DNA of 64,000 nt from a virus, in the IMG/VR virus record IMGVR_UViG_3300027763_000036, positions 32,001 through 96,000 of that record. One strand, written 5' to 3'. The notes below the pieces were generated by a model that was not told the origin of the DNA, did no database searches, and was given only the letters and a program-made list of their open reading frames with translations. Positions 15,724 to 60,200 of the stretch are shown here, one piece after another. Numbering within the stretch: position 1 is the first letter of the stretch; every line of letters starts with the position of its first letter. A program made the translations under genes and the position numbers.

Positions 15724-15734
15724 TAAATTAAACT

Positions 15735-16023: not shown

Positions 16024-16053
16024 AACCCCTGCACTTGCGGGGGTTTTGCTTTT
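16024..16053 (+). terminator. Rho-independent terminator
   Basis: aacccctgc-actt-gcgggggtt followed by ttgctttt. Confidence 0.75.
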
Positions 16054-16092: not shown

Positions 16093-16104
16093 AATTAGTA
16101 TAGT

Positions 16105-16686: not shown

Positions 16687-17348
16687 CAACTATTGGTGAA
16701 GCAATATCAAGGGTTAGAAATACTCTAAAGGCAGTTAAAGAAGATCCATTCTTAACTGATAGAGTTATATACAGCTCATTGATTAAATATGGTCAGACTC
16801 TTTTAAAGAGAGAAGATAATCAATTTAAACTTATGAAGATAAGTTCTATCTTTCAGGTATTGCCTTATATAGAACTTATAGATGTAGACAAAGTAGAAGC
16901 AGGTTGTATAGGAGTTTATTCTGGATGTTATTTTAAGAGATCTAAAGAAAAACTTCCAACTATTCTTGAAGGGGCAATGGGTCCTATTATACGTACTACA
17001 TCTTCAATAGATGGTACAATAGAAATGTTTAGAACAGATCCAGGTACTTGGGTGTCTATGGTTAGAACAACAACATTTAAATATAATACAAGAAAATATT
17101 TCTGGTATCTTAATGGATACTTATATGCACCAAACATTGATTGGGAAGCAGTAAGGATGGAAGCTATATTTCAAGGAGTTACAGATCCATGTGATCCAAA
17201 ACAGCAATGTGAAATTGCACAGGATCAAAGATTAACTATTCCGGAATATTTATTCTCTGAAGTAGAACAGTTTGTAATCAAAGAACTATCAATGTCAATG
17301 CAGGTTCCTGCTGATAATGCAGATGATAGTCAAAACTCTCTTAGATAA
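16683..17348 (+). CDS. Tail ring/adaptor protein
   Basis: 221 aa; T.GE.ISRVR N-terminus, YFWYLNGYLY, IPEYL; synteny with the tail module. Confidence 0.6.
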   Translation: MTTIGEAISRVRNTLKAVKEDPFLTDRVIYSSLIKYGQTLLKREDNQFKLMKISSIFQVLPYIELIDVDKVEAGCIGVYSGCYFKRSKEKLPTILEGAMGPIIRTTSSIDGTIEMFRTDPGTWVSMVRTTTFKYNTRKYFWYLNGYLYAPNIDWEAVRMEAIFQGVTDPCDPKQQCEIAQDQRLTIPEYLFSEVEQFVIKELSMSMQVPADNADDSQNSLR

Positions 17349-36451: not shown

Positions 36452-39400
36452 ATGGCAGAGCAAGAATTATTTGATCCTCTAGATCCACTAGGACCAGAGT
36501 ATGGAAGAATAAATCAACCTATACCAGATGCAAAAGGTTTATCTGCATTTGAAGGAGATTTAATTGATATGCCAAAAGCTAACATTCCCACAAGGAATGA
36601 ATCTTTTTTTCCATCTATTGCAAATATTGAAAATTTAAATAGACCTAACAGAGAGATTAAACATAATCTTGTTAAGACTAATGCTGTTAACCCTAGTATC
36701 CCAAAGAAGCCTATTGATATAAATCAATATAATAAGTCTACTAGTCAGTATATTCAATCTTTTTTTCAAGCTAATCAGGATAAAAATAACTATGCTAAAA
36801 TCTATTCATATAATGCTGGACCAGATGGTAATGCATTCTATAAAAGATATGCTGCATATGGACAAAAGAAATTTGATGAAGTTGGTTTCTCTCCACTAAG
36901 AGATAATGAAGCAAACTTTAATGCCAATACAACAAAATGGGAAAACTTCTCTACAATGATGGCGCATTCTTTTATTCCATTATTTACAAGAGGTTTTGTT
37001 TCTGGTCCTAAGAGTTTAGGTAAAATGCTAACAGGAGATTTTACCTCTGGAGATTTAGAAGATGCAAGAGCTTATGAAGAAGCAGCTGCTATAGGTAACT
37101 CAAGTAAAGGTGGCATTTTTGGTTTTGTTAATAATACTGTAATGAACTTTGGTTATACTGCAGGTATTATTGGTGAAGCTGTAGCAGAAGAAGCTGCAGG
37201 AGCATTATTAGCTGCACCAACAGGTGGTAGTAGTTTAATTGCAACTACTGCAAATAACTTATTAAAAATTCCAAAACTGTTTAAAGGATTAAATTCAGCA
37301 AAGAAAGGTTATGATGCTGTAAGAAAAACATTGAAACTTACTGAATCCGTAAGTGGTGCAAGAAATTTCTGGAATGCTGCAAGATCATCTGAGTTTTTAA
37401 AGTCAAGTGTTCAAGCATTAAATCCTTTGGAAAATACAATGCATGCATTTAGAGGTTTTAAACAAGCTGATAATTTAACTGACATGGCTATCTTATCAAA
37501 AACTGCTGGTGGATTCTACAGAGATGTTAGAAAAATAAACATGGCACTATCTGAGGCTAGACTAGAAGCTGGTATGGTGGAGAATCATGTTTATGATAAG
37601 CTTTATAATGAAGCATACATAGCAAATAATAATGAAGTACCTAATAATAAAGAGCTTGCTGAAATTGAGAAACAAGCTAAGGATGCTTCTTATGAAACTT
37701 TACTAGAGAATACAGCATTAATATATGTAAGTAATGGTATTACATTTCACAATATTACTGGACCTAAAGGTGGTATAAGAAACTTTATTAAATCTACTAC
37801 AGATGACATATATGATATTGCATCAAGAGAGGGTAGTAAGAACTTTGGTAAAATAGGTAAAGTTGTTTATGATAGAGCGGCAAAGAAGTTTGCTATTGAA
37901 AAAAACAATTTAAAAACTTTAGCTAAAGGTTGGTTAAAAAATCCAGTATATAAATCTGTTGGAAACACCGTAGGTTACTTTAAGGCTAACTTTACAGAAG
38001 GTATTCAAGAAAACTTACAGGAAACAATTGCGGAAGCTAATGAAAGATATTTTCTTGATAGCTATAAAAGCCCTACTCTTCAGACCATGCTTTACTCTAG
38101 AGCAGCAATGCGTGCTATCAATAGAGATAAGTTAGATTATTTCAGTGAGTCATGGGCAGAACAAAATCCTTTTACAGCAAAAGGTGCTGAAACATTTGCT
38201 TCTGGTTTTTTTATGGGGACTCTTGCGGGACCGTTAAACAGTGCAGTTCCTTTTCTTAGTTCTAACTGGAATAGAATGTTCCATAAAGAACAATATCAAA
38301 AATGGAAAGAGGCTCAAACAACTGTTGCTCAAAATTTAGTTAGCCAACTGAATGATATGGATCTTGGAACTTTTATGTCAGAGGAAATGCAAAATCTTGG
38401 AGCTCAAGATTTAGTAGGTGCTTTAAGAGCAAGAGAAAATAAAAAAGCAGGATTAGATAGTGAAGTAGAATCTTATATATCACAAGTTCAGAAATTAAAA
38501 AATACAGGTACCTTTGGTATATTTAAAGAAAAACTTGAAGGATTAAAAGAACTTACTGATGAAGAGTTTGCTGATGCTGTAAATATTGATTTAGAAAAAG
38601 TTCCTAAATATAGAACCCGTATTGATAAATCTATAGCTAGATTAGATAAGATAAAAGGCCTATATGAAAGAGTGGAAAAAAAATTTCCTAATCCTATTAG
38701 TAACATAGATGATTTAGATAAAAATGATCCTAACTATGAAGAAAAAAAACTTTTAGGGAATGCTTGGAATTTAGCTACAAGAAATATGGTTTTCTTCAAT
38801 GAGACCTATGATGATATACTTGAAAGAAGAGCAAAGATAGATGCAAAGTTTAATTCTAACCCTAAGTTTCAAAAGATAGATAATAAACAAAGAAATCTTT
38901 TATTCAACCCTCTTGTGCCAGAAGGACAGTTTAGTAAAGACTCTGGAGACATGGTTGAGGAAATTGACATATTAAAAAAAGAATTAGCACTAGAAAAAGA
39001 GTTAGGTAAAAATTCTAATAAGATAAAAGGTCTTGAAGAAAAAATAAAAATTACTACTGACTATGTAGAGAAGTTTAAGAATTTTGATTTATTCTTTAAT
39101 AGAAGCGGATACATAGAAAAGTATGCTGAGGATATTAAAAAAGCAACTGGTAAAGATGCTACTTCAGAAGAGATAATGGAATATATGGATTCTGATCTTG
39201 GAGGAAGTTTAGATGAAAACAATCCAACTGGGCAAAGAATTATTTCTGAGCTAAGAGACTCTTACAAAAACTATCTTAAAACTTTAGGTAAACAAAAAGG
39301 TGAGGATATATTCAGTGAAGATCTAGATCTTACATTTGAAGCATTAATGGATTACTATAAACTTGGTCATGAGAAAGTAAACATTGCAAAATATGTAGAG

Positions 39401-42400
39401 CTATTTAATGACTCAGATGCTTTCTTAGATATAGTAAGAAGGAATACTGATTGGATGAGAGTTCAAAATGGTAGAAGAGTAAAGTATTTTGAAGATCTAA
39501 TTAGATCTGAGATGGATAAAGTAAGAGCTAACGCATTACTAAATTCATTAGCTGATAAAGGCTTGTACATGAGTCTTGAGGATATGGGGAACTATATGAA
39601 TAATGGTATTCCGCCTAAAGAGATTTTTAACAATATTACTAAAGAAATATATAGAATAGGTGATCCTAAGTATGCTGAGATCTATCAAGAATATTTTCAA
39701 AAAAATGATGATTTAAAGTCTGATTTAAACCCTAGAAAAACAGGAATTTTAGATGATGCATATCAAAAACAAATTGATGATTTTGAAGCTAAGAAACAAG
39801 AAGAGATAGATAAGCTTGAAAAGAAACCTACAAGAAGAGAGACTGGAGAAGTAAAAGGTAAAGATCGGAATAAAACTTTTTCAGCTACTGAGGCAAGTAA
39901 TCAATTAGCTAATAATGAATATGTAGAACTTAAGATTAACAAAGACTCAGAGCCAATAGTATTATTCAAAGATGCTGAAGGTAATATTCACATGGATGAT
40001 GTTGATGGAGAACTTGTAGATGTTAGAGATATAAAAGATAGATTCTTAGAAGGAAAAAGATATGTAGTAGAAATGCTACCAGATCCATTAGAGGTAGAAA
40101 GAATTACAAATGTCTACAATGCTAAAATAGAGGGTGTGTTTAAAGCATATGCTGCAGATAAAGATTCTGTAGATCTTGAAGTTCCATATGAAGAAGTTAC
40201 TCAAGAAAGTAATCTTAATACACCTGACTTAATTGATTTTAGAAATTCTTTATATGTAGCATATCAAGAAGAGTATGTTGAAAATCTTTCTGCAGAACAA
40301 CAAGAAGCTTTGTTAGAAGATTCTGACTTAGATCAAGAAACATTTGAGAAGTGGTATTCTTTGCCTGAAAATAAAAAATACTTTGATGAGTATAATAATG
40401 AAAACAGACCAGCTATCTCAGAAAAGGAAACTGTCCTTAGTGTTAATGGGGTTACTGTAGATACTAAGAACAGAACCCTTGAACAATTATTTGAGATTAG
40501 AAATACACTTGCAGATAAGTTAACTATAGCAAATGAAGATATAGAGCTTCTAGATGATGAGACTGAAAAAGAAGAAAAGAAACAAGCACAAAAAGTAATA
40601 GATGCTTTAGCTTTAGATTTAAAAAATCTTAATGTTATTATTGCAGCAAGACAGTTTGCAAAATATCCAGAGGAAATAAAAGATTCTGTAAGAAGTATCC
40701 AAAAGTTATTTAAAGCCCAGGATAAAGTTGAAAGAGTAACGCTTACAGAAGATGATGAAGTAACAGGATTAAAGAAAGGACAAAAAGCATATAGAGTAAA
40801 TGGGAAGATTCATAGAAGAATGACCCAAGCTATGCATGATGTTATTGATCAAAAATATGAGTATAAAGGACAAGAAGATGTAGATACTGTATTCAATCAA
40901 ACAATAGGTAAGAATGGTTTAAATCCAGCTTCTGCAAAAGAGTTTGTAGATAGATTAAGAATACTTGCCGAAGATGATAAAAAGCTTCCAGGAACAAATA
41001 AAATATTCTTTGATAAGTTACAAGATCAGTTATTGGTATTACCATCTAGAACTGTTGAACAGATTAAACTTGAAAATCAAAAGTCTGAAATATTAACTAA
41101 AGCAGATAAAGAAAAAGATGCTGCTAAGAAAGAAGCATTATATGAGCAAGCTGTAGAAATTCAAAATAAAATTGATGGTGTTACAGCTCCTGTTTCTACA
41201 GATGCTAAAGCTGATATAGAAAGAAAGTCTGGTGAGTCTGTAAAAGACTTTATGGAAAGACTATTTTCTAATAATTATTTTACGGAAGTATCTGGAAAAC
41301 AAATATTTAGTTTAACACAAGGAAGATGGGGAGTTATTGTTAATATAGATGGTGTACAGGTACCTTTTTATCAATCTACTTCTGGTACAGATACTAAAGT
41401 AAAAGGTCAGTGGTATCCGTTTTTTGGAGATCAAGGTAATTGGGTTATAAAAGGTAATAGTGATGATTCTAATATAGGATATGGTTTCAAAGCTATACAA
41501 GATGTACAATCTTTTTTAAATAATAATATAAAAGAAACAGATGCTATAGCCTTAAGTGGTATTATATCTAAAGAAGTTCTTCAAAATCAAAGTTCATTAA
41601 GAATGTTAGATGAATCCAAAATAAAAGGTAATGAAAAAATATCTTTAAATAAAGAAGCAACTGCAGAAAGATTAGCTAGTGTAGCAGGTTATTCACTTGA
41701 AGAAGGAAGAAAAACTAAATCAGATTCAGAATTATTTCAGTTAGCATCTAAAAAAATATTTGCAGAACTAGCTTCTTTAGGTACAGCAGAAACAGTTGCT
41801 AAAGATAATTTTGATATTGCTACCAAGAAGAACGGTATTAAAGATATAACAGATGTATTCTTTGCAGAACAATCTTATCAAGATGGTAGAGATGCAGGTG
41901 ATTTCTTTGACTTAGCTAAAGACTATTTAGAGTCTGGTAAAAAACCAGAGTTTAATGAAAACATAATTACAAGAGAAGCATATGATAATTTAATAGGAGT
42001 TTTAGATCCAATTAAAAGTAAGATAGAGTCTGGAGAACTATATATTGTAGGTAGAGATCTTGTTGTATATGATTCAGATATAGACCTTGGTAATGATAGA
42101 AGAGATAGAATAGCTGGGGAAATTGACCTTATCTTAGTTGATAAAGATGGTATTTATGTTTTAGATATTAAATCTGGGGAAGCATCTAAATTTCTAAACT
42201 TTAATAATTTAAGTAGTAAACAAAAGATATTTAGCAAAAGGAATGAGTATACTCTTCAAACAGCTGGATATGCTACTATGTTAGAAAGAATGATAGATAG
42301 AAGAGTAGCTGGTCTAGCTATGCTTCCTATACAAAGAGCATCTAATAAAGAAACAAACCAAGTAATTGAAGTTAAGAAACCTATAAATCCTGATCTCTAT

Positions 42401-43948
42401 GAAGAAATTAATTACAAAAGAGATGCAGACGGGAATATAATTCTTAGTAAAGAAATAGATCCAAAAACTGGTAAGCCATTTAATGAAAAACAATTTGAAA
42501 AAACTAAAAAGAAATACAAGTATGATTTCTTAGTTCCTTTATATAGAGAATCTGTACAAGAAGAAATAGATAAGTTGTTTGGTAAAAAAGAAGGTAAACT
42601 TGCCCCGGGAGCTAAGAGAACTTTATCACGTAGATATAGTTTATTTAGAAGTGCTTTAGAACAGATTACTGATGAGGAGAGTAAAGCAAACATAGATAAA
42701 ATTAGAAGAGCTGAAAAACTTATAAATGATGCTGTTGAGAAAGATGGAATAATTATACCAGATGATATTGCTAATCTACTTGCACAAAAGAAACAAGCAC
42801 TAAGAGCTTATACGGGTAAAGAAGTTATTAAAAGTATAATTAAAAAATATAAAGAAGATTTATCTGACACAGAGAAAAAAGTAAAAGATCAAAAAGAAGC
42901 ACTGGAAAAAATAACTAGTAATATTTCATTTGATGATATAGATAAATCTAAACTTGAAGATGGTACTGATTTCATAGAAGAGCAATTAGCAAAAGATAAA
43001 GACTTTGCATTTTACTATAAAAAGCATGATGACTTTAAGGAAGAAGATTCTAAAGATGCTGCTGAAGTTCAAAAATTAACTATCTTAACAATGAAGGCAT
43101 CTAGATTATTAACAGATCAAGATATAGAAGATGACTTAATTGATGAGCTTACAATGGCTGATGCTTCTGAGTTAATACATGAAGGAGTTAAAAGAATTCA
43201 GTATTTAAAAACTGAAACTACAGATAATAAAACTCTCAAGGAATTAAAAGATTATCAATCCAAAATTTCTTTGCTTACTAGAACAATAGGCCTTAATACA
43301 AATAATCTTAATATTTTAGAGACTCTTGAAGCAGCAGAGTTTAATGCAGAACAAGGACTTATGGATCTAGCTTATGAGCAGATATCTAAAAAAATTCAGA
43401 ATCTTGAGGATGAGTTAAATAGAAACTATACTAAACCAAGTCGTAGGACAGATATTAATAAAGAGCTTGTTAATTTTAATAAATTCAAAGAAGCACTAGC
43501 TCTTGCTTATGAGATACCAATAGATATATTTGAAAATATAGTAGAAGAAGAGGAGGAAGTAATAGAAGATGAGTATGATAATGTAATTAAAGTAGGGGAT
43601 ACAGTTTATTCTAGAACTGGTACTGATACAACACCATATACAGTAAAAGAAATTACTCCTAAAAATTATATTCTTAAAGATCCAAAAGGTAAAGAAATAT
43701 CAGTTGAAATTAGTAAATTTGATGAACAATACATAACAGAAAGTGAGATGAATGCTGGTGAAACTACACCTCCGGGATACAATCCTACAGAAGGTGAAAA
43801 ATCTGTAATGCAAGAAAGCCAAATGTCAGTAGATGATTTCTTAAGAAAAGCTGAAGAAGATAAGGCTAAAGCTTACCAGGAAGGAGTTAGCAATACGCTT
43901 GCTCAAAATAGAGAGAACTTATTAAATAAAACAAAAGACTGTCCATAA
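36452..43948 (+). CDS. Giant virion/ejected protein with PD-(D/E)xK nuclease-like domain
   Basis: 2498 aa; IAGEIDL...VLDIKS...Y.LQ...Y at ~42110-42280; G/A-rich hydrophobic N-terminal segments; C-terminal KOW/SH3-like IKVGDTVY. Confidence 0.7.
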   Translation: MAEQELFDPLDPLGPEYGRINQPIPDAKGLSAFEGDLIDMPKANIPTRNESFFPSIANIENLNRPNREIKHNLVKTNAVNPSIPKKPIDINQYNKSTSQYIQSFFQANQDKNNYAKIYSYNAGPDGNAFYKRYAAYGQKKFDEVGFSPLRDNEANFNANTTKWENFSTMMAHSFIPLFTRGFVSGPKSLGKMLTGDFTSGDLEDARAYEEAAAIGNSSKGGIFGFVNNTVMNFGYTAGIIGEAVAEEAAGALLAAPTGGSSLIATTANNLLKIPKLFKGLNSAKKGYDAVRKTLKLTESVSGARNFWNAARSSEFLKSSVQALNPLENTMHAFRGFKQADNLTDMAILSKTAGGFYRDVRKINMALSEARLEAGMVENHVYDKLYNEAYIANNNEVPNNKELAEIEKQAKDASYETLLENTALIYVSNGITFHNITGPKGGIRNFIKSTTDDIYDIASREGSKNFGKIGKVVYDRAAKKFAIEKNNLKTLAKGWLKNPVYKSVGNTVGYFKANFTEGIQENLQETIAEANERYFLDSYKSPTLQTMLYSRAAMRAINRDKLDYFSESWAEQNPFTAKGAETFASGFFMGTLAGPLNSAVPFLSSNWNRMFHKEQYQKWKEAQTTVAQNLVSQLNDMDLGTFMSEEMQNLGAQDLVGALRARENKKAGLDSEVESYISQVQKLKNTGTFGIFKEKLEGLKELTDEEFADAVNIDLEKVPKYRTRIDKSIARLDKIKGLYERVEKKFPNPISNIDDLDKNDPNYEEKKLLGNAWNLATRNMVFFNETYDDILERRAKIDAKFNSNPKFQKIDNKQRNLLFNPLVPEGQFSKDSGDMVEEIDILKKELALEKELGKNSNKIKGLEEKIKITTDYVEKFKNFDLFFNRSGYIEKYAEDIKKATGKDATSEEIMEYMDSDLGGSLDENNPTGQRIISELRDSYKNYLKTLGKQKGEDIFSEDLDLTFEALMDYYKLGHEKVNIAKYVELFNDSDAFLDIVRRNTDWMRVQNGRRVKYFEDLIRSEMDKVRANALLNSLADKGLYMSLEDMGNYMNNGIPPKEIFNNITKEIYRIGDPKYAEIYQEYFQKNDDLKSDLNPRKTGILDDAYQKQIDDFEAKKQEEIDKLEKKPTRRETGEVKGKDRNKTFSATEASNQLANNEYVELKINKDSEPIVLFKDAEGNIHMDDVDGELVDVRDIKDRFLEGKRYVVEMLPDPLEVERITNVYNAKIEGVFKAYAADKDSVDLEVPYEEVTQESNLNTPDLIDFRNSLYVAYQEEYVENLSAEQQEALLEDSDLDQETFEKWYSLPENKKYFDEYNNENRPAISEKETVLSVNGVTVDTKNRTLEQLFEIRNTLADKLTIANEDIELLDDETEKEEKKQAQKVIDALALDLKNLNVIIAARQFAKYPEEIKDSVRSIQKLFKAQDKVERVTLTEDDEVTGLKKGQKAYRVNGKIHRRMTQAMHDVIDQKYEYKGQEDVDTVFNQTIGKNGLNPASAKEFVDRLRILAEDDKKLPGTNKIFFDKLQDQLLVLPSRTVEQIKLENQKSEILTKADKEKDAAKKEALYEQAVEIQNKIDGVTAPVSTDAKADIERKSGESVKDFMERLFSNNYFTEVSGKQIFSLTQGRWGVIVNIDGVQVPFYQSTSGTDTKVKGQWYPFFGDQGNWVIKGNSDDSNIGYGFKAIQDVQSFLNNNIKETDAIALSGIISKEVLQNQSSLRMLDESKIKGNEKISLNKEATAERLASVAGYSLEEGRKTKSDSELFQLASKKIFAELASLGTAETVAKDNFDIATKKNGIKDITDVFFAEQSYQDGRDAGDFFDLAKDYLESGKKPEFNENIITREAYDNLIGVLDPIKSKIESGELYIVGRDLVVYDSDIDLGNDRRDRIAGEIDLILVDKDGIYVLDIKSGEASKFLNFNNLSSKQKIFSKRNEYTLQTAGYATMLERMIDRRVAGLAMLPIQRASNKETNQVIEVKKPINPDLYEEINYKRDADGNIILSKEIDPKTGKPFNEKQFEKTKKKYKYDFLVPLYRESVQEEIDKLFGKKEGKLAPGAKRTLSRRYSLFRSALEQITDEESKANIDKIRRAEKLINDAVEKDGIIIPDDIANLLAQKKQALRAYTGKEVIKSIIKKYKEDLSDTEKKVKDQKEALEKITSNISFDDIDKSKLEDGTDFIEEQLAKDKDFAFYYKKHDDFKEEDSKDAAEVQKLTILTMKASRLLTDQDIEDDLIDELTMADASELIHEGVKRIQYLKTETTDNKTLKELKDYQSKISLLTRTIGLNTNNLNILETLEAAEFNAEQGLMDLAYEQISKKIQNLEDELNRNYTKPSRRTDINKELVNFNKFKEALALAYEIPIDIFENIVEEEEEVIEDEYDNVIKVGDTVYSRTGTDTTPYTVKEITPKNYILKDPKGKEISVEISKFDEQYITESEMNAGETTPPGYNPTEGEKSVMQESQMSVDDFLRKAEEDKAKAYQEGVSNTLAQNRENLLNKTKDCP

Positions 43949-49900: not shown

Positions 49901-52900
49901 GTATTGGTTTTATGTTTGATAATCAAACTCAAAACTTTATAAATGATGTATTCAATAAAGAAACATATGCTTCTAAATTAACTGAGAAAGAAGGTAATAA
50001 AATAAACTATAATACTTTTCAGTTTAGTGAAAAAATGAATGCAGCAGTTATAAAAGATGCTGAAAGAAGTTCTATATATGTTGATGATTATGAAAAAATG
50101 TGGGAGAAAGACTATCTAAAAAGATTTAGTCCAGAAGTTGCAAAAGAAAAAGCAGCAGCAGATGCTAAGCCCTACAGAGAAATGAAAGAGTCAGATGGTA
50201 TTGCATTTGTCACATTAGATGCATACCGAACACTTAAGAAAGTAGGAAGAGGTTGGAGTTTGGGTGAAGATGCACTTTATAAGAAAATTATAAATGGTGA
50301 AGAAATATCAAGTAAAGATGTAAAAGAGTTCTATTCTATTTTCAAGTTACATTATTTTGGAACAATAGAAAATGATTTATTACCTGTGACTGGTATGTTT
50401 AAGTTTTCGGTTATGCCAATTATACCTGGAGTAAATGCAATTCCAGGTAATGAGCTTGATAAGCTTCACAAAAAAATGATGAGACAAAATACTCAGCTTG
50501 TTTTGTTTGCATCCGGTTCAAAAGGGTCACATATAACTTCAGATGGTAAAACAGATAATATTTATACTAATAAAGAAGATAAATATATTAATACTGAAGT
50601 AGATGAAAAAGGTAATGATGTATTTCAGTTTACTAAAAATCCATTCTACTTAGCTAACTTTAAAGAGGTTACTGTAATGAATAACTCTTTTAAAGAACAT
50701 CTTCCAATAGCTACACAAACAAGAGCTATTACAATAGATAATTTATTTGAAGATGGAGATTTAAAAAATCCAGACAATAAACCTTTTGTAGATGAGTACA
50801 CAAATACAATCCGTGAATACTCTAAAGTATTAAAAGAAGATTTATTAAATGGATTAGGAATTGAGCTTATAGATGGTAGAGTAATTGGTGACTTTACAAG
50901 GTTTGTTGAGATTATTAGGGATGAGATGTCTCAAAGAGATACCCCACCACATTTAATTAAACTAGTAAATACCAATCTTAAGGGACAAATTGCAATGGAT
51001 TTATCATTGCATCCTGAATCAGATAGTATTGAAAAATTACTTGTTAGTTTAATTCAAAGAGGAGTTATTAAACAACAAACTAAAGGTGAGCCATTAGTTC
51101 AATCTCCAGCAACATTTACAAATGGTATTTGGGATACACCATATTTAGATCTTACAGAATTAAAAGAAATACAAAAGTATTTAGGAACTAATACTCTTCC
51201 TTTCTATTTAGCAAATGGAGAAACTAGAACTGAAGAAATGAAAGTTGCTATTGCCTTACAAGGAGACTTTAGAAACTTACTTAATGCTAATGATCTAGAA
51301 GGAAATAAGATTGAGACTATTGAAAGATTAAATCAGTTGATAAAGAATCCTAAGTGGTTTGCAAAAAATAAAAAGTCATTAACATTGTTCGGGCCTAGAA
51401 TCCCTAATGATGCACATAACACTATTGAGGCAGCTACCGTTTGGCATTTCTTACCAGAGTCATTTGGTAATACTATTATTACACCAACTGAGATTGTAGC
51501 AAAAGCAGGTTCTGACTTTGATGGGGATAAGTTATTTATGTCCATGCCTAATATAGACAGTGAAGGAAACTTTATTAATAAAGGAGTAGAAAACTTTGAC
51601 AAAGTTTTAGAAGAGACTAAAGAACTTGAGAAGAAAAAGAAACTTCCTAAAGATAGACCTACTTCTAAACAGATAATTGAACTACAGAAAAAGTATTTAC
51701 AGAACAGATACTTACAAGCATCTGTAGAAATATTAATGCTTCCTGAAAATGCTATAACATTAACTAAGCCTAATGGTACATATCTAGTAGATAGATATGA
51801 GGAAAATGTAACAGAATTTAGAACAGGATATGATAAGTTTAAAAATGTTGGTGGAAGACCATCTGATGTAAACACAAAAGGTGTAAAGATTCCAAATACG
51901 TCAAACCATTTTACAGCAGGATATAACCTTTATGTACATGATGCAAACTTATCACTTGAACCATCACTAGGTATTTTAGCAAAACTTACCAAGTCTATTC
52001 CTATGTATAAAGCTGCTGGTGCAAAAATGCCAGCAACATATAATGCAGGTATCACACTAAAGGTTCCATTAGATGTTAGATTTAATAAGAATATTACAGT
52101 AAATTCTAAAGGTGAAACTGTTATATCTATTGGTGCTGAAAATAATGTGGCTGGTGAAAATATTTCTGACACAACTTCTCACTCATTACAAGGGGTATTG
52201 GATAGAGCTAAAGCTACATTCCCATTTGAATTAAAGTTGGTTCCAGAAGCAATGGATGTTTATGGTTATCTAACAAGAGCAGGGGTAGATCAAGAACAAA
52301 TAGTTTACTTGCTTAATCAACCACTAGTATCTCAGTATCTTGATTTACAAAAGATAAATGAGTCTTCTATAAACAATGCTTTGTTTGGAAAGCAGAAAAA
52401 ATTTATGATTTCTCAAAATTTGTTTATTGAAAATCTTAAGAAGACTTTAACTGAAGATCAATTAAAAAGGCTGGTTCTTGAGATAAATAAAAATAAACTT
52501 GCCGCTATAATGAAATCATTACCTGAAGACTTAGAACTTCAAGTAATTATTCCTCGTAAAGAGGGTGTTTATACTGTGGCTGCTTTAAGAAATCAATTAA
52601 ATGCTTTTGTAAAAACTGGTGAAGGAATAAATCCTAATTCTATTTCATCTATTTTGATAGAGTTACCGGATGAAACAAAAAAAGAAATTTATAGTTATGT
52701 TGTTCCTACTTTTGATAAAGCTGGATATTTATTGAGCCAAGGAAATGCATATTTCTTAATTGATTATATTGCAAAAAACAAACTTGCTAATAAAGATGAA
52801 ATTCAAACATCTGATTTGGTAGATATAATGAAGAAACAAGATTCATCTAGCTTAAAAGCACTGATGATCTTTGCACATTATGTTGAATTAGAGAGACAGT

Positions 52901-55900
52901 ATTCAAGAATGAATGATCTTGAAAAATCATTTACTCCGGATACTGCAAAAGTTTCTACTACTCAAGAAGCAATAATTAGAAAGAAAAAATATAAAACTTT
53001 CTTTAGTGCAATACAAACTAATGTTCCAGAATATTTAAAACAATCAGAAGAAATAGATCAAGATTTCTTAAATAAGTTAATGAATGAATCTGTTGTATCT
53101 TCATTAATATTTGATGATTTAACAATTGATTTATTAAAACCATTATTTCAAACTAAACTTGATGATGTCATTGTTAATTATATAGATGATGCATTAAAAG
53201 AAAATAGAGGAGAAATTTCTAATGCTTTTGGTGTGGGTGCTGATGGAAGAGCTGAGTTCATAAGACAGTATGGAAATACTTTAGTAAACTTTATATATCA
53301 AAACTATTTATCATATTCTTCTGATGCAACTGGTAAGTTAGCAAATTATCCAGAAGCAATCAATGGTAAAGAAGTAGTGGTAGATAATACTATGGATGTT
53401 CTTGTAAAAATTGAAGAAGATAAAATTCTTATAAACACTAGAATTATTGAATTTGATTTTGCAAATAAATCTTTCTTGGAAAATAATGATACTGAAGCAG
53501 CTTATGTAAACAGAAATTATGATACTTTTAAAGTAGGTCAAGATCCATTTAAAAATCTAAGATCTTTCTATAGATATCATATTGAGTTAGCTCTATTAGA
53601 AGAAAATAATTCAATAGACACATTAGCAGATAGTGAATATTATTATTTTGGACAAATGGTTGCAAAAAATGATGGTAATATAGAACGAGCATATATTCAG
53701 TATATATCTGAAAGAGCACTATCAAATAGTTATAACCCATATTATATCATGGGTAGAACTAAATATAGTTATACCAACAACGTATTAGAGTTAATTGATT
53801 CATTGGAAAATTACCCAGCACTATTTGATAGATTCCCAATCCTTACTCAAATTTCTCCACAAAGAAACAGAGAAGGATTTAGAATAATTAGATTGAATAA
53901 TAGATCAGATGTAAAAGGAGCACTAGCTCAAGACTACTACAATCAGATTAGACAGCTTGGAGATATCTCTATCCAAAAATTAGATAACCCAAGTAACAAT
54001 CCTGTAATTACATCTAAGGATAAAAGAATAAGTGAGATATTTAATTTATTCTCAATCATGATGTACTATCAGCATGGTGTAGGTAAATCAGGAACAAGCT
54101 TTAATAGTGCTTTAGATTCATCTCAATTTAAAGATATTATCATGCCTTCTACACAGGCGTTTATGGGTAATTACATTAATCCAAGTAAAACTTCTAGAGA
54201 AGAAATACAATCATTATTAAATGCTGTATATCAACAAACTGTTTCTAGACAGAGGTTTAAAATAATGTTAGGTACTAAGAATGAATATGCAAATGCAGAC
54301 ATAGAAGCTATAGCAAATGAACTTGATAAAAAAAGAACAGAAGGAGAAATAGAAGAGTTTGATGAGGATGAAGGTTCACAAAAGATTCCTTCAGAATTTA
54401 AAAAAGGTGAGAAACTTATTTTAGATGAAGATGTTAAAGCATTTAAAAGATATTTGATATCATCTAATGGAGTTAAGCCTTCTAAGTTTACAACTGTACA
54501 AACTAAGTTTTCAGAGTTCTATAATGGTAGACAACAGGGTATGCCAAATACTGCTGCCTGGATGCTTAATAGCTCTAATCTATATGACATGGTAGAAATA
54601 AGTCAAGACTCTGACTTATTAGGTATTGTATACTATGAAAATGTAGATCTAGAAACAGGATACCAAATGATTAAAAAGGGTGAGGGTCCTACTCAACCTA
54701 CTGGAGTTAAAGAAGTTATTAAAAATGAAAAAGGACTGATTATAATTAATAATGCAATTCCTTTACAAAAAACTCAACAAATAGTAAATGATAGTAAAAA
54801 ATTTATAGAAGAAACTTCTTTTAAACAAACAGGTGGTTCAGTATCTTGGGGTTATGGAATGCAATGGATAAGATCAGCCGGATTAACAGCAAAACAAAAA
54901 GAAGGTGTTGTAATTGGTAAACAGATAGGTGGTCAAGAAGTAACTCAAGAAATGGTAAATGATCTTATTGCTGGAGTTGACCCTAAAAAAATAAAAGGTT
55001 TACCATTATATGTATATACTATTTATGACAAAAATGGTAATAGGTTACCTAATATACCAAGTGACATAATACTAACATTGCAAGAACAAGGAATTGATTT
55101 ATCTCAATATGATGCTAGTTATAATTCTGTATATGATAAGAATGACAAAGGTAGTTTAATTGTACATCAAGATAATACTGAGTTTAATACTTCACCAATT
55201 ATTACTGTTTCTTTGGGTAGACCAATGAAATTTATTACATATCAATTAAAAGATTCTAATAATTATAGTTTTGGTACTAATTCTAAAAATAAATATGAAT
55301 TAACCTTAAATACTATTTCTAATAAACTTGTATCTCAAAAGCTTGCTCCTGAATTAAAAAGACAAAAAAATTTTAGAGGTGATGAAGTTATAGCATATGG
55401 TGAATTAACTCCTGGAAATTTAGCTAAATATGCTAAAATGGTAGGAATGGAATCTGAAGCATTAGATGTTTTAGCAAATTCAATAGAAAAAATTGAAGAA
55501 CATATGTTAACAAATGGTGCAGTTTTAGTTTTTTCTAATGAAAATAGAAATGTGTTTCATGAGATTATTTTTGATGAGGAAACAGATAAATTACCAATGC
55601 CTCAAGGTTTTCCTGATTTAACAATAAATAAATCTTATACAGGGATGGGCAGACCAGATAAAATGGTTAATACAAGAGATTATAGGGTTGTATTAACTTT
55701 AAGAAAAGTAACTGGTGCTACTGTTAATAATATTGATATACAAAAACTTACATCTACTCAACCTACTAAAACACTTACTACTCAAGATTCTGAAAACATA
55801 TACTCTCAATTAGGCACTTTAACTTCAAATATTGTCATATCCAATATAAAAACTAAAGATGGTAAGTATGATAGGACCGCTAATATAAAAGAAGCAAAAG

Positions 55901-57264
55901 TTAAAGGTAGAGTGTACACTATGGAAGTAGATAGTGATGTAAAAAGCTTCTCAAATCCTTGGGCTAGTTTTAATAGAAAAGGAACAATTAAAACAAATTC
56001 TACAAAAGAAGCTGTTTTAAATTACATTGATTGGCTTACTACAGATAAATTTATAAATGTTAAACCAGAAAGAAGAGCTTTTATTTTAGATATTTTAAAA
56101 TCTGGTAAATTAAAAGGAAGACAACTTCAATATTATGCTGAATTAGGAGAGCCATCTCATGCTACAGCTTTAGATTATTTAATTAATAAATATAACTGGG
56201 GGCAACCTACGTCAACATCTAAAACACCAGTATTTGATTCTCTTCCTGGTAAATCTACTACACCTACTATGACTTATGCTGGTATAGGAAGTAGACAAAC
56301 ACCACAAGAAGCTCTTGATCTTATGCCTCAAATTGCTAAGTATCTTGATAATTTAGGTTATACATTAAGAAGTGGTGCAGCAGAGGGTGCAGACACAGCT
56401 TTTGAAAAAGGTGCAACAAAAAAAGAAATATTTAAAGGATTTGACAGAACAGGTCAAAGAGAAATAAATGTTGCTAATGAAATACATCCTGATCTTCAGG
56501 GTGCTATGAATGCATCTAAATCTAAAAAAATAAAATCAAGATTAGCTGAAGGTGCAACACAAGAAGAAGCTGAAAAATCAGGTGAAAGATCTGCATGGGC
56601 TGTTCAAAACTTAATGGCAAGAAATACTAATCAAATATTTGGTGTTAATTTAGATACACCGGTAGATTTTGTATTGTTCTGGGCACAAGAAATTCCTGGT
56701 TCAATTAGACCAAAAGGTGGTACAGGACAAGCTGTAGAAATGGCTAGAAGAAAAGGTATACCTACTATTAATTTAGCAGATAAAAATTGGAGAGAACAAC
56801 TTAAAGCTGTACTTTCTAATAAACCATCTACTCAACCTACTGAAGTTAAACCAGGTGGAGAACAATCTTCTATCAATGATGACATGGCTGAGTACACTAA
56901 ACTTGTTGAACAAAACAACGGAGCTCAACCAAAAACATTTACTGTAGGTACAAGAACTTGGACTCTTAATAAATTTGGTAACTATGACTGGTCTGACCCA
57001 ACAACTGGGCAAATCTACATGAGAAACATTAACATGGAGACTGGAGTAGCTGTACCTGAACCATTAATGAATGAGCCTGTAGATCCGGCATTAGTAGAAG
57101 AAAGCTTAAACTTTATAAATAGTAATAGAAAATTATTAGCTTTGGATCATAAACTTGCTGATATGGGTATTGATATAAATGATTTCCTTAAGCAAGTAGA
57201 GCAAATAAAAACAATGGAAGATTATTTCAAAGCTAAAAAAACAATAGATAAGTTATGTCAATAG
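43948..57264 (+). CDS. Giant virion RNA polymerase (double-psi beta-barrel) with zincin and accessory C-terminal domains
   Basis: 4438 aa; PRIP...GSDFDGDK (DFDGD at 51514-51528), ESDG and FKFS motifs; HEAWH at 46507-46521 with EEMLAE; AlkB-like, DUF4326-like and SLOG domains near the C-terminus. Confidence 0.88.
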   Translation: MITCSINNIEIVKALYADVSGALKKAQDSKKDFDHKDYMKKLFKDLSEQSSPEVAAKYLQSVPKIIIDAQNNYFEDLFVNLNALSKLNQDFKNSDTGVTAVIKELGDTSNLGEKKDNLQNKKNNSINLNQNPVAPKPVVRLPQRFRTLTPFGGTLQSYIKIDPNLKEQSITPESINQELLYMIRTFDKIKEIQNTTDTLNGVVYDGVKLHFKSITLSAYDKPENQKYLDADTKALIAKSASIINQGTAPKDVVQITELPILLLSDIDGNVLYFDNNGNITTEDSGKPVYQFMRTVRKDGNTFSVTNRYNTEDLLITPEDFADATYDEAIDGPKDKYLVSVKEMMQKEMSDLYDIQQRVISGQEMILPITGISNGIPANLSATKITLSNLLNLPTLNANPIGVIKTIRTIPIAQDGFNTGSAFIQLNGNKFFIERPLITQDLAVEIADVLTNPNISNAAKQEYTDQFLKGYSTNNSSKKFTLIYSKNGKSIYFNMFEKFYQTDPKDIKEKLDLHSSYLKTLDQSQIDKYKETIIKYLTKEGTKANQGRINIIFQNAALESGKYTRLNDAGTGFNRNADYHTFLTTTDSEISLTNADPGFYNYVVNFTTFDTPVGEFINAEKNEKDSKLIDAELNRVIGNALSNEYKAKVKQEDPTQQRPYDSFLVTRYLRDQISTVYNKSQSKTFVQGLIDALKGPLYSYLHLRDAQIKILQDKLNITNFQTVTPAPTAKPPVQEEIVDVIEVLGAESPQDNTVVNRIFNEDTTEDDSIFFDRAGIKKEFINPLKIVQAKIWWNSKKMEPMRKLIEFDRMLNIVNSDSYARFIVAGATLADTGTLGTILVNKEKGTVFQNLTIYHEAWHVFSQLFLTKKQKSDLYNELLNYTDAKGNTPYAKMSLRELEEMLAEDFRNYVKTGKAKQGAQKRNSLFRKIVEFLKQLFGKVLKKFKKQEIVINSLNSPMAARLFNELYIGEFNKYSPSITNQMFTKLDRGPRQIEYPSQDALSPGDGMTVVSSIDNFFAEEVDKLYQQRKAKGEDRKEISLSVIKSPAQKEELYKRARKRFETVLAQEQAKLRAVEGIADFNTLDTLEEIESNAFAIMKNEVYDKEGKLIPEKSGKDKYFFLTSQVTNFDNLSASTKKGERVRGEDYKDTIRIVGDFYKHKTIKKDGRSIDIVLVTRPQDAQTQFDNYLKGNVWDESSKKWIQDAGGAKIFTRIEKKPIVDKAKIDQTQEEIRDNVRVLETTLKNWGDEKSGIVQYHMQNTDFDVAKRRYSVDGELLPEIEELKEDSKGEVKDESEKDLENDGGLGQGNEGTGDVSLQQTMSKETIFVLKTLFKVNSDGTIPTDRFGIKQRADFSKTFAIVAKTIGGIRDRQKAYEKLRLESEKFPELKQLFETKFPNPNKSGATVNTFEFDLARNFFQDFGKPHIDYLQLYGYYDKEVVNDAERYNLNFVVKESDLAIDNLLNKWSNNFATLKGNKYINVSRDNIRSLKLADVVKDFKSKSTSELDLAKQIEFAKVLGIELQNNDNVKSELERSAYYGLPYIFKIVNSINNIEQGSVEKALSKEKSRLVSNFKENPLKVLTDGFSGSLIGDKGTVKQLTQLKRLAELQTTYGYDSSSTAIIRSNQNVGYKEVNWSSGHARAYALNEVENFNQLWEDPRYNYMSHLNPEINTHVRHLKIISSLFPNLEKKSENTSVKFFAQDGFAITDERGDSSGNTTTELDPLSKFIFEFHSFSLAGVAELPRTSEKKFSWGFKVDGGINHPDVNFESAKDPNLYIDIDMFKTVAGEQYARAGFLYGYIQGEFDRIKKFRGPEKEKYLNFTGYNEPVIEDGEKMFSGQTFVAFKGVLSEGTKKRLYALADQQADIEILDYVKNVDKELGKMIKDDITTFFNEKTNEIKELYFNKIPYISRSLLEKFGIDKESLKDEEVFKSYLAKPEIVNALLKAYTYNDFIHKYETSIIMFGDHAQWNHGKEDWSKRIPGLTSDGIGFMFDNQTQNFINDVFNKETYASKLTEKEGNKINYNTFQFSEKMNAAVIKDAERSSIYVDDYEKMWEKDYLKRFSPEVAKEKAAADAKPYREMKESDGIAFVTLDAYRTLKKVGRGWSLGEDALYKKIINGEEISSKDVKEFYSIFKLHYFGTIENDLLPVTGMFKFSVMPIIPGVNAIPGNELDKLHKKMMRQNTQLVLFASGSKGSHITSDGKTDNIYTNKEDKYINTEVDEKGNDVFQFTKNPFYLANFKEVTVMNNSFKEHLPIATQTRAITIDNLFEDGDLKNPDNKPFVDEYTNTIREYSKVLKEDLLNGLGIELIDGRVIGDFTRFVEIIRDEMSQRDTPPHLIKLVNTNLKGQIAMDLSLHPESDSIEKLLVSLIQRGVIKQQTKGEPLVQSPATFTNGIWDTPYLDLTELKEIQKYLGTNTLPFYLANGETRTEEMKVAIALQGDFRNLLNANDLEGNKIETIERLNQLIKNPKWFAKNKKSLTLFGPRIPNDAHNTIEAATVWHFLPESFGNTIITPTEIVAKAGSDFDGDKLFMSMPNIDSEGNFINKGVENFDKVLEETKELEKKKKLPKDRPTSKQIIELQKKYLQNRYLQASVEILMLPENAITLTKPNGTYLVDRYEENVTEFRTGYDKFKNVGGRPSDVNTKGVKIPNTSNHFTAGYNLYVHDANLSLEPSLGILAKLTKSIPMYKAAGAKMPATYNAGITLKVPLDVRFNKNITVNSKGETVISIGAENNVAGENISDTTSHSLQGVLDRAKATFPFELKLVPEAMDVYGYLTRAGVDQEQIVYLLNQPLVSQYLDLQKINESSINNALFGKQKKFMISQNLFIENLKKTLTEDQLKRLVLEINKNKLAAIMKSLPEDLELQVIIPRKEGVYTVAALRNQLNAFVKTGEGINPNSISSILIELPDETKKEIYSYVVPTFDKAGYLLSQGNAYFLIDYIAKNKLANKDEIQTSDLVDIMKKQDSSSLKALMIFAHYVELERQYSRMNDLEKSFTPDTAKVSTTQEAIIRKKKYKTFFSAIQTNVPEYLKQSEEIDQDFLNKLMNESVVSSLIFDDLTIDLLKPLFQTKLDDVIVNYIDDALKENRGEISNAFGVGADGRAEFIRQYGNTLVNFIYQNYLSYSSDATGKLANYPEAINGKEVVVDNTMDVLVKIEEDKILINTRIIEFDFANKSFLENNDTEAAYVNRNYDTFKVGQDPFKNLRSFYRYHIELALLEENNSIDTLADSEYYYFGQMVAKNDGNIERAYIQYISERALSNSYNPYYIMGRTKYSYTNNVLELIDSLENYPALFDRFPILTQISPQRNREGFRIIRLNNRSDVKGALAQDYYNQIRQLGDISIQKLDNPSNNPVITSKDKRISEIFNLFSIMMYYQHGVGKSGTSFNSALDSSQFKDIIMPSTQAFMGNYINPSKTSREEIQSLLNAVYQQTVSRQRFKIMLGTKNEYANADIEAIANELDKKRTEGEIEEFDEDEGSQKIPSEFKKGEKLILDEDVKAFKRYLISSNGVKPSKFTTVQTKFSEFYNGRQQGMPNTAAWMLNSSNLYDMVEISQDSDLLGIVYYENVDLETGYQMIKKGEGPTQPTGVKEVIKNEKGLIIINNAIPLQKTQQIVNDSKKFIEETSFKQTGGSVSWGYGMQWIRSAGLTAKQKEGVVIGKQIGGQEVTQEMVNDLIAGVDPKKIKGLPLYVYTIYDKNGNRLPNIPSDIILTLQEQGIDLSQYDASYNSVYDKNDKGSLIVHQDNTEFNTSPIITVSLGRPMKFITYQLKDSNNYSFGTNSKNKYELTLNTISNKLVSQKLAPELKRQKNFRGDEVIAYGELTPGNLAKYAKMVGMESEALDVLANSIEKIEEHMLTNGAVLVFSNENRNVFHEIIFDEETDKLPMPQGFPDLTINKSYTGMGRPDKMVNTRDYRVVLTLRKVTGATVNNIDIQKLTSTQPTKTLTTQDSENIYSQLGTLTSNIVISNIKTKDGKYDRTANIKEAKVKGRVYTMEVDSDVKSFSNPWASFNRKGTIKTNSTKEAVLNYIDWLTTDKFINVKPERRAFILDILKSGKLKGRQLQYYAELGEPSHATALDYLINKYNWGQPTSTSKTPVFDSLPGKSTTPTMTYAGIGSRQTPQEALDLMPQIAKYLDNLGYTLRSGAAEGADTAFEKGATKKEIFKGFDRTGQREINVANEIHPDLQGAMNASKSKKIKSRLAEGATQEEAEKSGERSAWAVQNLMARNTNQIFGVNLDTPVDFVLFWAQEIPGSIRPKGGTGQAVEMARRKGIPTINLADKNWREQLKAVLSNKPSTQPTEVKPGGEQSSINDDMAEYTKLVEQNNGAQPKTFTVGTRTWTLNKFGNYDWSDPTTGQIYMRNINMETGVAVPEPLMNEPVDPALVEESLNFINSNRKLLALDHKLADMGIDINDFLKQVEQIKTMEDYFKAKKTIDKLCQ
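54689..56841 (+). repeat. Dispersed 14-nt direct repeat CTACTCAACCTACT (x3) plus one degenerate copy
   Basis: Exact copies at 54689-54702, 55754-55767 and 56828-56841; partial CAACCTAC at 56203-56210; all encode (T)QPT linkers. Confidence 0.85.
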
Positions 57265-60200
57265 GTAGTTGTCCAAATGTAAATAGTCAAGAATGGAAAG
57301 ATATACTTGAACTAAATAATGGTAATGTTGAAAGAGCCAGAGAAGAATGGGATCTTCTTTATGGTTTTGATCAATCATTAAATAGTGATCCAGATTTATC
57401 TGATATTCCTGTAGAAGTTTTTGAAGATGAAACTGTAGATGAATTCATAGAAGAGCCAACTTTTGATAGAGCTCTTAAAAAAGTAAAAATCTTTTTAAAG
57501 ACAAAACAATATGAACTAAATAGAAAAAAAGTTCAGAATCAAAAAGCAAAACAAGCGGCATTAGCAAGAATCATTAAGAACTTAAATGAACTTGAAGGAG
57601 TAGAAGCTATTAATGCTTTTATTGAACATGCTTATACAGAAGGCATGGAGACAAGAAAGCTATTAAATGAAGCTCTAAAAAGAAGTAGAGAAGGAACAAT
57701 TGATAGTAAAGAACTTTTGGATATCTTGTCTGCTGCTAATCAGTTTGCTAATGGTTATAGTATATTAGATGAAATAAGCAAAGAAGATATTGACAGATAC
57801 TTTTCTAAACCTGTTGCATCAAATAAACCTGAGTCAGAATTAACACCTCAAGATAAATTAACAAGAGCTATTGCTAATAGAAATAATATTAGAACAGTAT
57901 TTGATGAAAAAGTAATAGATGTAATTGCTGAGACTCTAGTTGATTATAGATCTACAAGAGGTACATTAACTATTCAAGAAAATATAAAAGCTTTTGAAGA
58001 AAGAATAGAAAATGCTAGAAATGATACATCTTTAACTGATAAAGCAAGAGCAAGAGTATTAGAAAATAATGAGAAGCAACTAGCAAAGTGGAAAGCACTT
58101 ATGTTAGATAAAGAATCATTAGGTAATTTGTTAAGAGAAACATCTAAGAATGAAAATATATTTGATGCTTATCTTAATCCATTAATAAGTTCAGGAGATG
58201 CTCCTTTATCTTTATTTGCTAAGATGATTAAAACTCAGTTTGAAAGCACAAAAGTTGAAGATATCCAAGAAAGAAATCAAGGTGTAGACCAGCTTAAAGA
58301 ATTTGCTAGTAAAACAGGTAGGGGTTTTAGTAATGTTGCAAAATTAAATGAAGGCTTATATGAGTTTTTGGAGATTGCAAGAAGAGATGTTAGAGGTAAA
58401 GTAATTAGAGATCCAAAAACAGGTGAGGTAGTTATTGATAAGGTAGTTTCTTTTGTTCAAAAATATGACATGAACAAATATCAACAAGCTGAACGAGAGT
58501 TTTATAAAAATAATCCTAAACCAAAACTTAAAGAAGATGCATCTGATATAGAAAAAAAGCAATATAATGATGCATTGGATGATTGGTATAAAACAAGAAA
58601 CAGATGGTATAAAGCTAATACACAGCCCAAGTCTCAAGAAGAGATAAACAAAATAAAAAATGAGAAAGAAAAAGATTATATTCAAGGTATTATAACAAAT
58701 GAAGAATACCAAGAGTGGTTAAAACGCGTAGAGCGTGATACAAAAAGGGGTAAAGAATTTTATGGGGAGCTTGCAGAACCTAATAATAGTTACTTAAATA
58801 ATAACTGGTTAAATTTATATGATAAAGACGGCAAGCCAAAAAATGCAGAAGGTTTGTATCACAAATATCTTGTAGATAAATATCTTGCTGCTCAAGAATT
58901 ATTACCGGATGGTCAGAGAAGAGGATACATATTACCATCTATAGAGATGGATGAAGCAGAAAGACTACAAAGATTTGGTGTAAAAGCTACTGTTAAAAGT
59001 AGAGTCTCTGAAACATTTAGAAGAAAGAAATATGATCAAGAATTATTTGGAGAGGAAGCTGGTCAAACAGAAGAGATAGATAGAAATGTTTATGGTGTAG
59101 GTAGTTCTTCAGGGGAGAAGTTTGATATTATCCCAACTTACTTTACACAATTCATGGATGCTGATGATGTTACTGTAGATTTATTATCTTCAGTTTTAAG
59201 GTTTGATGCAATGGCTAGAAGATACAATGCATTAAATGAAGTTCAGTCAGAGATATATGCTTTCCAAAAAGTAATTGGTAATAGAAAGATTGCTGCCAAA
59301 GACAGTAAGGGTAGACCTGTAATGGATGCTTTTGCAAAGAAGATGGGTTATGAGGAATACATAAAAGAAAATGGAATGGATTATTCATCTTTTCATGTTA
59401 ATGAGTTTATTAATATGGTTATTAAAGGTGAATCACAAAAATCACAGCAATTTATGAATGTAGAGTTATCTAAAATAACTAATACATTAATTTCTGTATC
59501 TGCAATTACTACTCTTTCAATGGACTTACTCAAGGGTGTTGCTAATAATTTACAAGGTAATATTCAGCTTGTTATTGAATCAGCTGGTTCTGAGTTTTTT
59601 AGTTTAAAGAATTATGGAAAAGCCAAAGCAGTTTATTTATCTAAAGTTGGTGGATGCATATCAGACTTTGGTAAGCCATATGCAGAAAGTTGGTTAGGTG
59701 GTTTAATTGATTACTATGATGCTATACAGGGTCAGTTTAAAGATGAATACGGTAGAGATGTTTCTGCTACTGTAGCTCAAAAACTTTTCAGAACTAATAC
59801 TCTTTTCTGGAATCAGCACTTTGGAGAACATGAGGTACAAGTTACAGCCATGTTAGCATTAATGGATGCTACAAAAGTTATTGATAAAGAAACTGGAAAA
59901 GAAATTTCCCTACTTCAGGCGCATGAAAAATATGGAACATTCTTATTTGATGTTGTTACAGATGAGAATGGTAATAAAACTAAAAACTATAAAGTTCAAA
60001 TTAGAGCTAACAAGACATTAGAAAACCCAGAAGGTGATCTTATAGATTTTGATGAGAAGCAAAGAATAGAACACACAAATATACTACATGCATTAAATAA
60101 AAGAATGCATGGTGTATACAATGACTTTGATAAATCAGTACTTCAGAAATACTCTGCTGGTAGATTAGTAATGATGTATAGAAAGTTTATGGTTCCTGCT

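Follow-up and report, generated by a model that had tools for sequence, protein, structure and literature searches.

Lone terminal cysteines probably join three giant RNA polymerase cargo proteins of a marine crAss-like phage head to tail

The window analyzed here, 64,000 nucleotides (nt) of an uncultured viral genome (bases 32001 to 96000 of the 113.5-kb IMG/VR virus record IMGVR_UViG_3300027763_000036, which is 97% complete), contains three co-oriented giant open reading frames (ORFs) that close the structural gene module of a marine crAss-like phage. Their products are gpA (36452 to 43948; 2498 amino acids [aa]), gpB (43948 to 57264; 4438 aa; a virion RNA polymerase [vRNAP] with extra domains), and gpC (57255 to 60806; 1183 aa). 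All three are encoded on the plus strand, as are the motifs, domains, and cysteine codons given below for them. Head-to-tail clasps between lone cysteines at the facing termini, most likely disulfides, probably join gpA, gpB, and gpC as the first, middle, and last links of a chain. The terminal cysteine pattern is conserved and polar, and it covaries with gene fusion and fission; the link itself would, by analogy with phage A4, be a disulfide formed in the virion.

The three ORFs were assigned to the crassvirus RNA polymerase (RNAP) cargo block because profile searches established orthology. The gpA profile matched its orthologues crAss001 gp47 (E value of 1.7e-15) and phi14:2 gp078 (1.1e-8). 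The gpB family profile matched the phi14:2 vRNAP gp077, a chain of PDB 6VR4, with an E value of 4.4e-18 (Z=1e5, filters off) and with the catalytic block included, and it also matched crAss001 gp50, p-crAssphage gp44, and cr50_1 gp059. The gpC orthologues were crAss001 gp49 (3.4e-89), phi14:2 gp076 (1e-59), and the C-terminal part of p-crAssphage gp44 (residues 3441 to 4011; 7e-28). The DFDGD catalytic motif of two-barrel RNAPs was found at 51514 to 51528 (gpB residues 2523 to 2527) within the segment AGSDFDGDK (residues 2520 to 2528); its three aspartates, D2523, D2525, and D2527, were invariant among the 31 homologues of alignment A1, and the block aligned with residues 1314 to 1375 of the phi14:2 vRNAP. 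This motif and the profile match bear out the RNAP label that the initial annotation, made from the window's sequence alone, had given to the 4438-aa protein. The three cargo proteins were found by mass spectrometry in phi14:2 and crAss001 virions (crAss001 and phi14:2 papers), and by analogy the window proteins would be packed in the virion and ejected. The junction region and the gpB N terminus had no match among GenBank phages by blastn and tblastn, and the clade is known only from metagenomes. Searches of the PDB with phmmer gave no useful match for gpA, gpB, or gpC (for gpB, none at all), and the gpC family profile had 0 matches there. An AlphaFold2 model of gpC (17-row alignment; mean predicted local distance difference test [pLDDT] score of 62.6; mostly helical) had no Foldseek match in the PDB at E <= 0.001.

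Exact counting placed the cysteines of the three proteins at the codons and residues that had been read from the translations, with no additional internal cysteine. The only cysteine of gpA is the penultimate residue, Cys2497 (KDCP at the C terminus; 43940 to 43942). gpB has two in total, Cys4 (MITC; 43957 to 43959) and the penultimate Cys4437 (KLCQ at the C terminus; 57256 to 57258, overlapping the gpC ATG), and both correspond to invariant columns of alignment A1. gpC has Cys6 (MSIGSCPN; 57270 to 57272) and Cys801 (59655 to 59657), which is the sole internal cysteine among the three proteins and is not conserved. Each of the four terminal cysteines is encoded by TGT. The gene overlaps of the initial annotation were likewise confirmed, at 1 nt (TAATG) between gpA and gpB and 10 nt between gpB and gpC. 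In-frame TGY codons numbered 1, 2, and 2 in the gpA, gpB, and gpC genes, compared to approximately 54, 98, and 28 expected from base composition, and frame +2 of the same DNA contained 137, 249, and 75. Cysteine made up 0.055% of residues in the four cargo proteins versus 1.6% in the window's remaining ORFs. A uniform null gave ~9e-11 as the joint probability of these terminal positions, a post hoc figure, and the real proof against chance is conservation rather than this probability. The hexamer TGTCCA (Cys-Pro) occurs at both junctions, at 43939 to 43944 (the last two gpA codons) and at 57270 to 57275 (gpC codons 6 and 7). Proline follows the cysteine in 94% of gpC N termini and in only some gpA C termini.

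Conservation and gene architecture were compared across about 20 genomes and 290 metagenomic homologues. The gpB homologues (n = 52; 25 to 100% identity; 3400 to 6000 aa) included 50 full-length sequences, every one of which had a cysteine at residues 3 to 5 and another within the last 1 to 5 residues, with 0 to 2 cysteines in the approximately 4000 aa between. Among gpA homologues, a cysteine lay in the last 8 residues in 119 of 120, no N-terminal cysteine was found (0/120), and 118/120 had no other cysteine. gpC homologues were the mirror case, with a cysteine at residues 3 to 6 in 118/120, a C-terminal cysteine in 0/120, and no other cysteine in 90/120. Homologues of gpA and gpC that broke the rule were truncated sequences. 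In a comparison anchored on the cysteines, cysteine was the sole invariant residue of each terminal segment, and all neighboring positions were variable. The terminal cysteines are thus kept across homologues, which is the conservation on which the initial annotation had made its proposal depend.

The same arrangement was found in cultured phages and distant relatives, with seawater and the human gut among their sources. In phi14:2, gp078 ends in TIC, gp077 contains only Cys3 and Cys2179, and gp076 contains only Cys3. In crAss001, the only cysteine of gp47 is Cys2339 (position -3), gp50 has Cys5 and Cys2404, and gp49 has only Cys5; the gp47 gene lies on the opposite strand. The rule was also kept in cr111_1, IAS virus, cr116_1, and two marine relatives (L023 and L025), and the distant L025 has 4 cysteines in 7785 residues, all at the two junctions. 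Two annotated start codons, those of crAss002 gp33 (11088 to 23825) and bajarodcaudo virus XHH63389 (20129 to 24238), are probably misassigned; an internal methionine gives MSC 32 codons into gp33 and MAKSC 19 codons into XHH63389, as in their orthologues.

Crassvirus genomes differ in which cargo modules are fused, and the cysteines follow these differences. Where A, B, and C are separate (phi14:2, crAss001, cr111_1, cr116_1, IAS virus, and bajarodcaudo virus), A has a cysteine at the C terminus only, B at both ends, and C at the N terminus only; the B gene of IAS virus appears as two ORFs in a record with N bases, and that split was not used as evidence. Where A and B are fused (the six Suoliviridae cr50_1, cr1_1, cr109_1, cr7_1, cr52_1, and cr10_1, together with cr108_1 and Flavobacterium phage Fpv1), the AB protein has one C-terminal and no N-terminal cysteine, and C retains its N-terminal cysteine. 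Where B and C are fused (the Intestiviridae p-crAssphage, ctbg_1, and crAss002), A retains its C-terminal cysteine, and BC starts with MSC (in crAss002, 32 codons inside the annotated start) and has no C-terminal cysteine. The sequence around each inferred fused junction was free of cysteine for more than 150 residues. In cr108_1, the catalytic motif is interrupted by an intron-like gap that does not split the protein, and no cysteine pair accompanies it. The initial annotation had suggested looking for terminal cysteines wherever the genes are split; they are present at every protein split point and absent at fused junctions.

In every architecture seen, the number of proteins with a C-terminal cysteine equaled the number with an N-terminal cysteine, and exactly one facing pair was lost per fusion. 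The balanced counts and the loss of one facing pair per fusion favor heterotypic A-B and B-C pairing and argue against a shared four-cysteine site, cyclization of B, and homotypic or external anchoring. A single four-cysteine cluster shared by the three proteins was ruled out, as two-protein architectures hold only 2 cysteines. Pairing of the B N terminus with the B C terminus, accompanied by pairing of A with C, is less parsimonious, since each fusion removes one facing pair.

A bond of the proposed kind has been seen in the pre-ejectosome of cyanopodophage A4 (Anabaena phage A-4L), where cryo-electron microscopy (cryo-EM) resolved a disulfide between gp27 Cys1715 and gp26 Cys5 (PNAS 2025, PMC12002296), with the C-terminal helix of gp27 sitting in a cleft of gp26 (PMC12002296). 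In the A4 genome (KF356198), gp27 (1717 aa) has its sole cysteine at position -3, gp26 (1114 aa) has its sole cysteine at residue 5, and gp29 has none. A4 shows that such a bond between a C-terminal and an N-terminal cysteine can exist in a virion. The initial annotation had proposed disulfide or metal bridges linking the proteins in gene order; pairing of the facing termini is supported by the split and fusion comparison and by the A4 structure, and the choice between disulfide and metal is one that pairing does not settle.

Structure prediction weakly favored contact at the second junction. Cofolding of gpB residues 4240 to 4438 with gpC residues 1 to 330 gave an interface score (ipSAE) of 0.53, and none of the 3 controls scored above 0.00. 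Runs shared 45% or more of their contacts, and the partner pLDDT was at least 65. Of 80 solved complexes, 58 passed the mark applied in this test, as did 2 of 110 mismatched pairs, and only 7 of the 80 solved complexes passed at scores of 0.60 or under, the range into which both passing mismatches fell. In a low-confidence single-sequence model (mean pLDDT of 59), the last ~15 residues of gpB were predicted to form a helix ending at the cysteine.

These observations suggest how the cargo might be handled. The block would travel inside the capsid and be ejected into the host ahead of or together with the DNA, and selection would have purged cysteine from it, as in other ejected phage proteins, except at the facing termini, where one cysteine would be retained within about 1 to 10 residues of each terminus facing the next protein. 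The C-terminal cysteine of gpA would pair with Cys4 of gpB and that of gpB with Cys6 of gpC, each disulfide fastening a C-terminal helix of one protein to the N-terminal domain of the protein that follows it. The product would be a 1:1:1 head-to-tail chain of ~8100 residues, a posttranslational counterpart of the fused polypeptides of other crassviruses, and the position of the cysteines beside the termini would keep the joined chain essentially unbranched. Such a chain may serve copackaging at fixed stoichiometry, ordered exit through the tail, and release by reduction in the cytoplasm. These roles are consistent with cysteines ~1 to 11 residues from the termini and with the "beads on a string" equivalence to N4 discussed below.

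The least probable alternative by far, and one that we consider hardly credible, is that the cysteine codons are by-products of overlapping start and stop signals, translational coupling, or chance. The TGT of gpB Cys4437 does overlap the gpC ATG (ttATGt), and where an ATG overlaps in this way, the codon that follows can only be TGN; many relatives likewise have a C-terminal KLC together with a start in ML, which fits an ATGTTAA overlap. However, the remaining three terminal cysteines of the window are forced by no overlap, and the pattern is kept in crAss001, cr116_1, and IAS virus, whose gene A is encoded on the opposite strand, and in cr111_1, whose cargo genes have intergenic gaps of 4 and 10 nt. 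Conservation down to 25% identity and the low uniform-null probability also argue against chance, and an origin in gene overlap or chance is refuted by the nonadjacent and nonoverlapping cases. Coupled translation, which the initial annotation had read from the overlaps, is to be seen in the same light; the overlaps are real, but overlap is unnecessary for the pattern, as crAss001 and IAS virus (gene A on the opposite strand) and cr111_1 (no overlap) demonstrate.

Two other alternatives accept that the cysteines are functional, and both appear improbable to a similar degree. Facing cysteines might be joined by a bridging metal, together with other ligands in a site of the Zn or Fe-S type, leaving the chain the same and changing only its chemistry. 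The pairing evidence leaves the chemistry unspecified, and a metal bridge would sidestep the problem of oxidation, since it could arise during assembly despite the reducing cytoplasm. Each terminus has a single cysteine, however, with no conserved His, Cys, Asp, or Glu partner beside it, and cysteine alone is invariant; two-protein systems hold 2 cysteines in total, too few for a Cys4 site; and the sole solved analogue, A4, has a disulfide. Alternatively, the partner of each terminal cysteine might be a protein of the capsid, portal, or tail, a further copy of the cargo protein itself, or a small thiol, so that the cysteine would anchor or cap the terminus. Other structural disulfides do exist in crAss001 virions (crAss001 paper). 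Lone cysteines near a C terminus without an obvious N-terminal partner also occur in p-crAssphage gp47 and gp48 and crAss002 gp30. Against such partners, the outer ends of the block are free of cysteine (0/120 gpA N termini and 0/120 gpC C termini), the balanced terminal counts and the loss of one pair per fusion are not predicted by homotypic or external anchoring, and the pairing seen in the A4 structure is heterotypic. In p-crAssphage (BK010471), the 857-aa gp47 has its only cysteine at position -2 (QSCR at the C terminus) and gp48 ends in YRCGGHRR, and the only cysteine of crAss002 gp30 lies at position -8 (FRCGGKKKIA); these Intestiviridae cysteines may mark a further link or a different use.

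Several observations weigh against a disulfide-linked chain. The cytoplasm in which phages assemble is reducing, and gut crassviruses live under anaerobic conditions, so that an oxidation step is hard to place. Neither thioredoxin nor glutaredoxin was detected in the phage's own genome, and no Erv1/Alr-type oxidase was detected there, in a search that had no positive control and is uninformative. A bond between cargo proteins has been observed in no crAss-like phage, and the crAss001 cryo-EM paper leaves the cargo unresolved and has no word on cysteine. Related sequences are among the homologues counted, and the counts do not represent independent events. The C-terminal cysteine lies 9 to 11 residues from the end, not 1 to 5, in crAss001 gp50 and the AB protein of cr10_1, and several internal cysteines are tolerated in gut phages. 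The A4 disulfide stabilizes a folded pentameric ring, not an unfolded thread, and the gpC family showed no detectable homology to A4 gp26 (hhalign probability of 0.2%).

More tentatively, and with the balance tilted against it, the proposal might extend to all split-gene crassviruses. The whole RNAP cargo would then be one covalent, essentially unbranched thread of 5000 to 8000 residues, a posttranslational polyprotein that leaves through the tail in fixed order, with cytoplasmic reduction of the two clasps releasing and activating the polymerase.

Beyond the catalytic motif, gpB contains further features. An HExxH zincin-like motif (HEAWH) was found at 46507 to 46521 (residues 854 to 858), with H854, E855, and H858 invariant in alignment A1, and on the strength of the motif this region is a candidate protease. 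An AlkB-like 2-oxoglutarate-Fe(II) oxygenase domain was predicted at 55033 to 55704 (residues 3696 to 3919; Pfam PF13532, E value of 1.7e-7; 32.1 bits against a cutoff of 31.2). The C-terminal third of gpB in which it lies (55033 to 57264) is a cargo region that varies among the 52 homologues (P0001 to P0052), with AlkB-like PF13532, DUF1768/YbiA PF08719, PF18760, PF25176, helicase, and intein/homing-endonuclease domains as alternatives. The last ~120 residues of gpB, ending in the cysteine, are conserved in all homologues, whatever domain precedes them. Interruptions of the RNAP gene were also observed, comprising an ~290-nt gap in cr108_1 (16405 to 16696) exactly inside the catalytic motif (between AKAGSD and FDGD) and gaps with an endonuclease ORF in cr116_1 (15618 to 16459) and bajarodcaudo virus (16491 to 17386). 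These interruptions look like group I introns or homing elements. In gpA, a PD-(D/E)XK nuclease-like region was weakly matched at residues ~1880 to 1979.

On the same strand, the cargo genes are preceded by those for the major head protein, for virion structural proteins, and for a tape-measure/lysin-like protein. Immediately upstream of gpA, a 1040-aa protein (33327 to 36449, plus strand) with no cysteine and no Pfam or PHROG match is probably another cargo or ejection protein, outside the cysteine chain. A 1134-aa protein (23892 to 27296) with two CxxC pairs (residues 343 to 365) and a tape-measure/endolysin-like region at residues 890 to 1029 (PHROG 16823 and 938) likely degrades the wall as an ejected or tail protein. 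Three window proteins without a family match are, unlike the cargo, very rich in cysteine, with 65 cysteines in 809 aa (11595 to 14024), 19 in 563 aa (9082 to 10773), and 17 in 559 aa (14044 to 15723). They are probably external fiber or receptor-binding proteins stabilized by disulfides.

Among the closest known systems are gp078-gp077-gp076 of phi14:2 and gp47-gp50-gp49 of crAss001, in which the vRNAP likewise stands between A and C, the RNAP is the same DFDGD two-barrel enzyme, and the terminal cysteine pattern recurs. They differ in the size of the polymerase (2180 to 2412 aa, versus 4438 aa for gpB), which in the window has the extra HExxH and AlkB-like domains. Neither the crAss001 atlas nor the phi14:2 bioRxiv preprint mentions cysteine or a covalent link in the cargo proteins. 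Fused Crassvirales forms and their relatives contain the same modules in the same order, with a peptide bond where the split forms have a cysteine pair; fused forms are covalent via translation, whereas the window would use two posttranslational links.

The T7-like polymerase of phage N4 is not a two-barrel enzyme. N4 gp50 resembles the window proteins in being a giant polymerase cargo, carried in the capsid and threaded down a narrow tail, and in being purged of cysteine. This ejected vRNAP is one 3500-aa chain that has been likened to "beads on a string," and A, B, and C may correspond functionally to its N-terminal domain, core, and C-terminal domain, as has been suggested (PMC13434306). 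The N4 cargo is one polypeptide, and a link is therefore unneeded; gp50 (3500 aa), gp51, and gp52 of N4 (EF056009) contain no cysteine at all. In T7 (NC_001604), gp15 and the first 1135 residues of gp16 are without cysteine, and gp14 has a single cysteine at residue 2 (MCW). Cysteine purging thus seems to be general among ejected proteins, and the retained terminal cysteines of the crassvirus cargo therefore stand out.

In phage A4, as in the window, capsid-internal ejection proteins are encoded by consecutive, co-oriented genes, with a C-terminal cysteine in the upstream protein and an N-terminal cysteine in the downstream protein. A4 differs in having one link instead of two and no RNA polymerase in the chain, and it is a T7-like podophage with a 42-kb genome. 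The profiles of gpA, gpB, and gpC matched no A4 protein, no relation to gpC in fold was detected either, and since gpC and gp26 have no detectable homology, the likeness is one of function (analogy) and not of descent. The A4 paper presents the bond as a stabilizing detail and draws no general rule, covariation with fusion, or connection to ejection order (PMC12002296). The initial annotation had known of no description of the mechanism. A4 is a published one-link precedent, but full-text literature searches found no description of a terminal-cysteine chain for crassviruses; the one-link A4 disulfide is thus known, and what is new is a chain of two links centered on the polymerase, its order-wide conservation, and the way it covaries with gene fusion.

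No phages of the human gut are more abundant than crassviruses. How a polymerase cargo of ~0.7 to 1 MDa is packed at defined stoichiometry and expelled in order is an open question according to the crAss001 and N4 structure papers (N4, PMC13434306). The conserved rule of a single cysteine per facing terminus, with the rest of each protein free of it, makes for a concrete hypothesis, testable at low cost on cultured phi14:2 and crAss001. The terminal-cysteine rule also provides a sequence signature for chains of ejected proteins and a means of correcting start codons in uncultured phage genomes. If the proposed chain is real, the free fusing and splitting of cargo genes would be explained, with peptide bond and cysteine clasp interchangeable, and a structural detail of cyanophage A4 would become a general principle.

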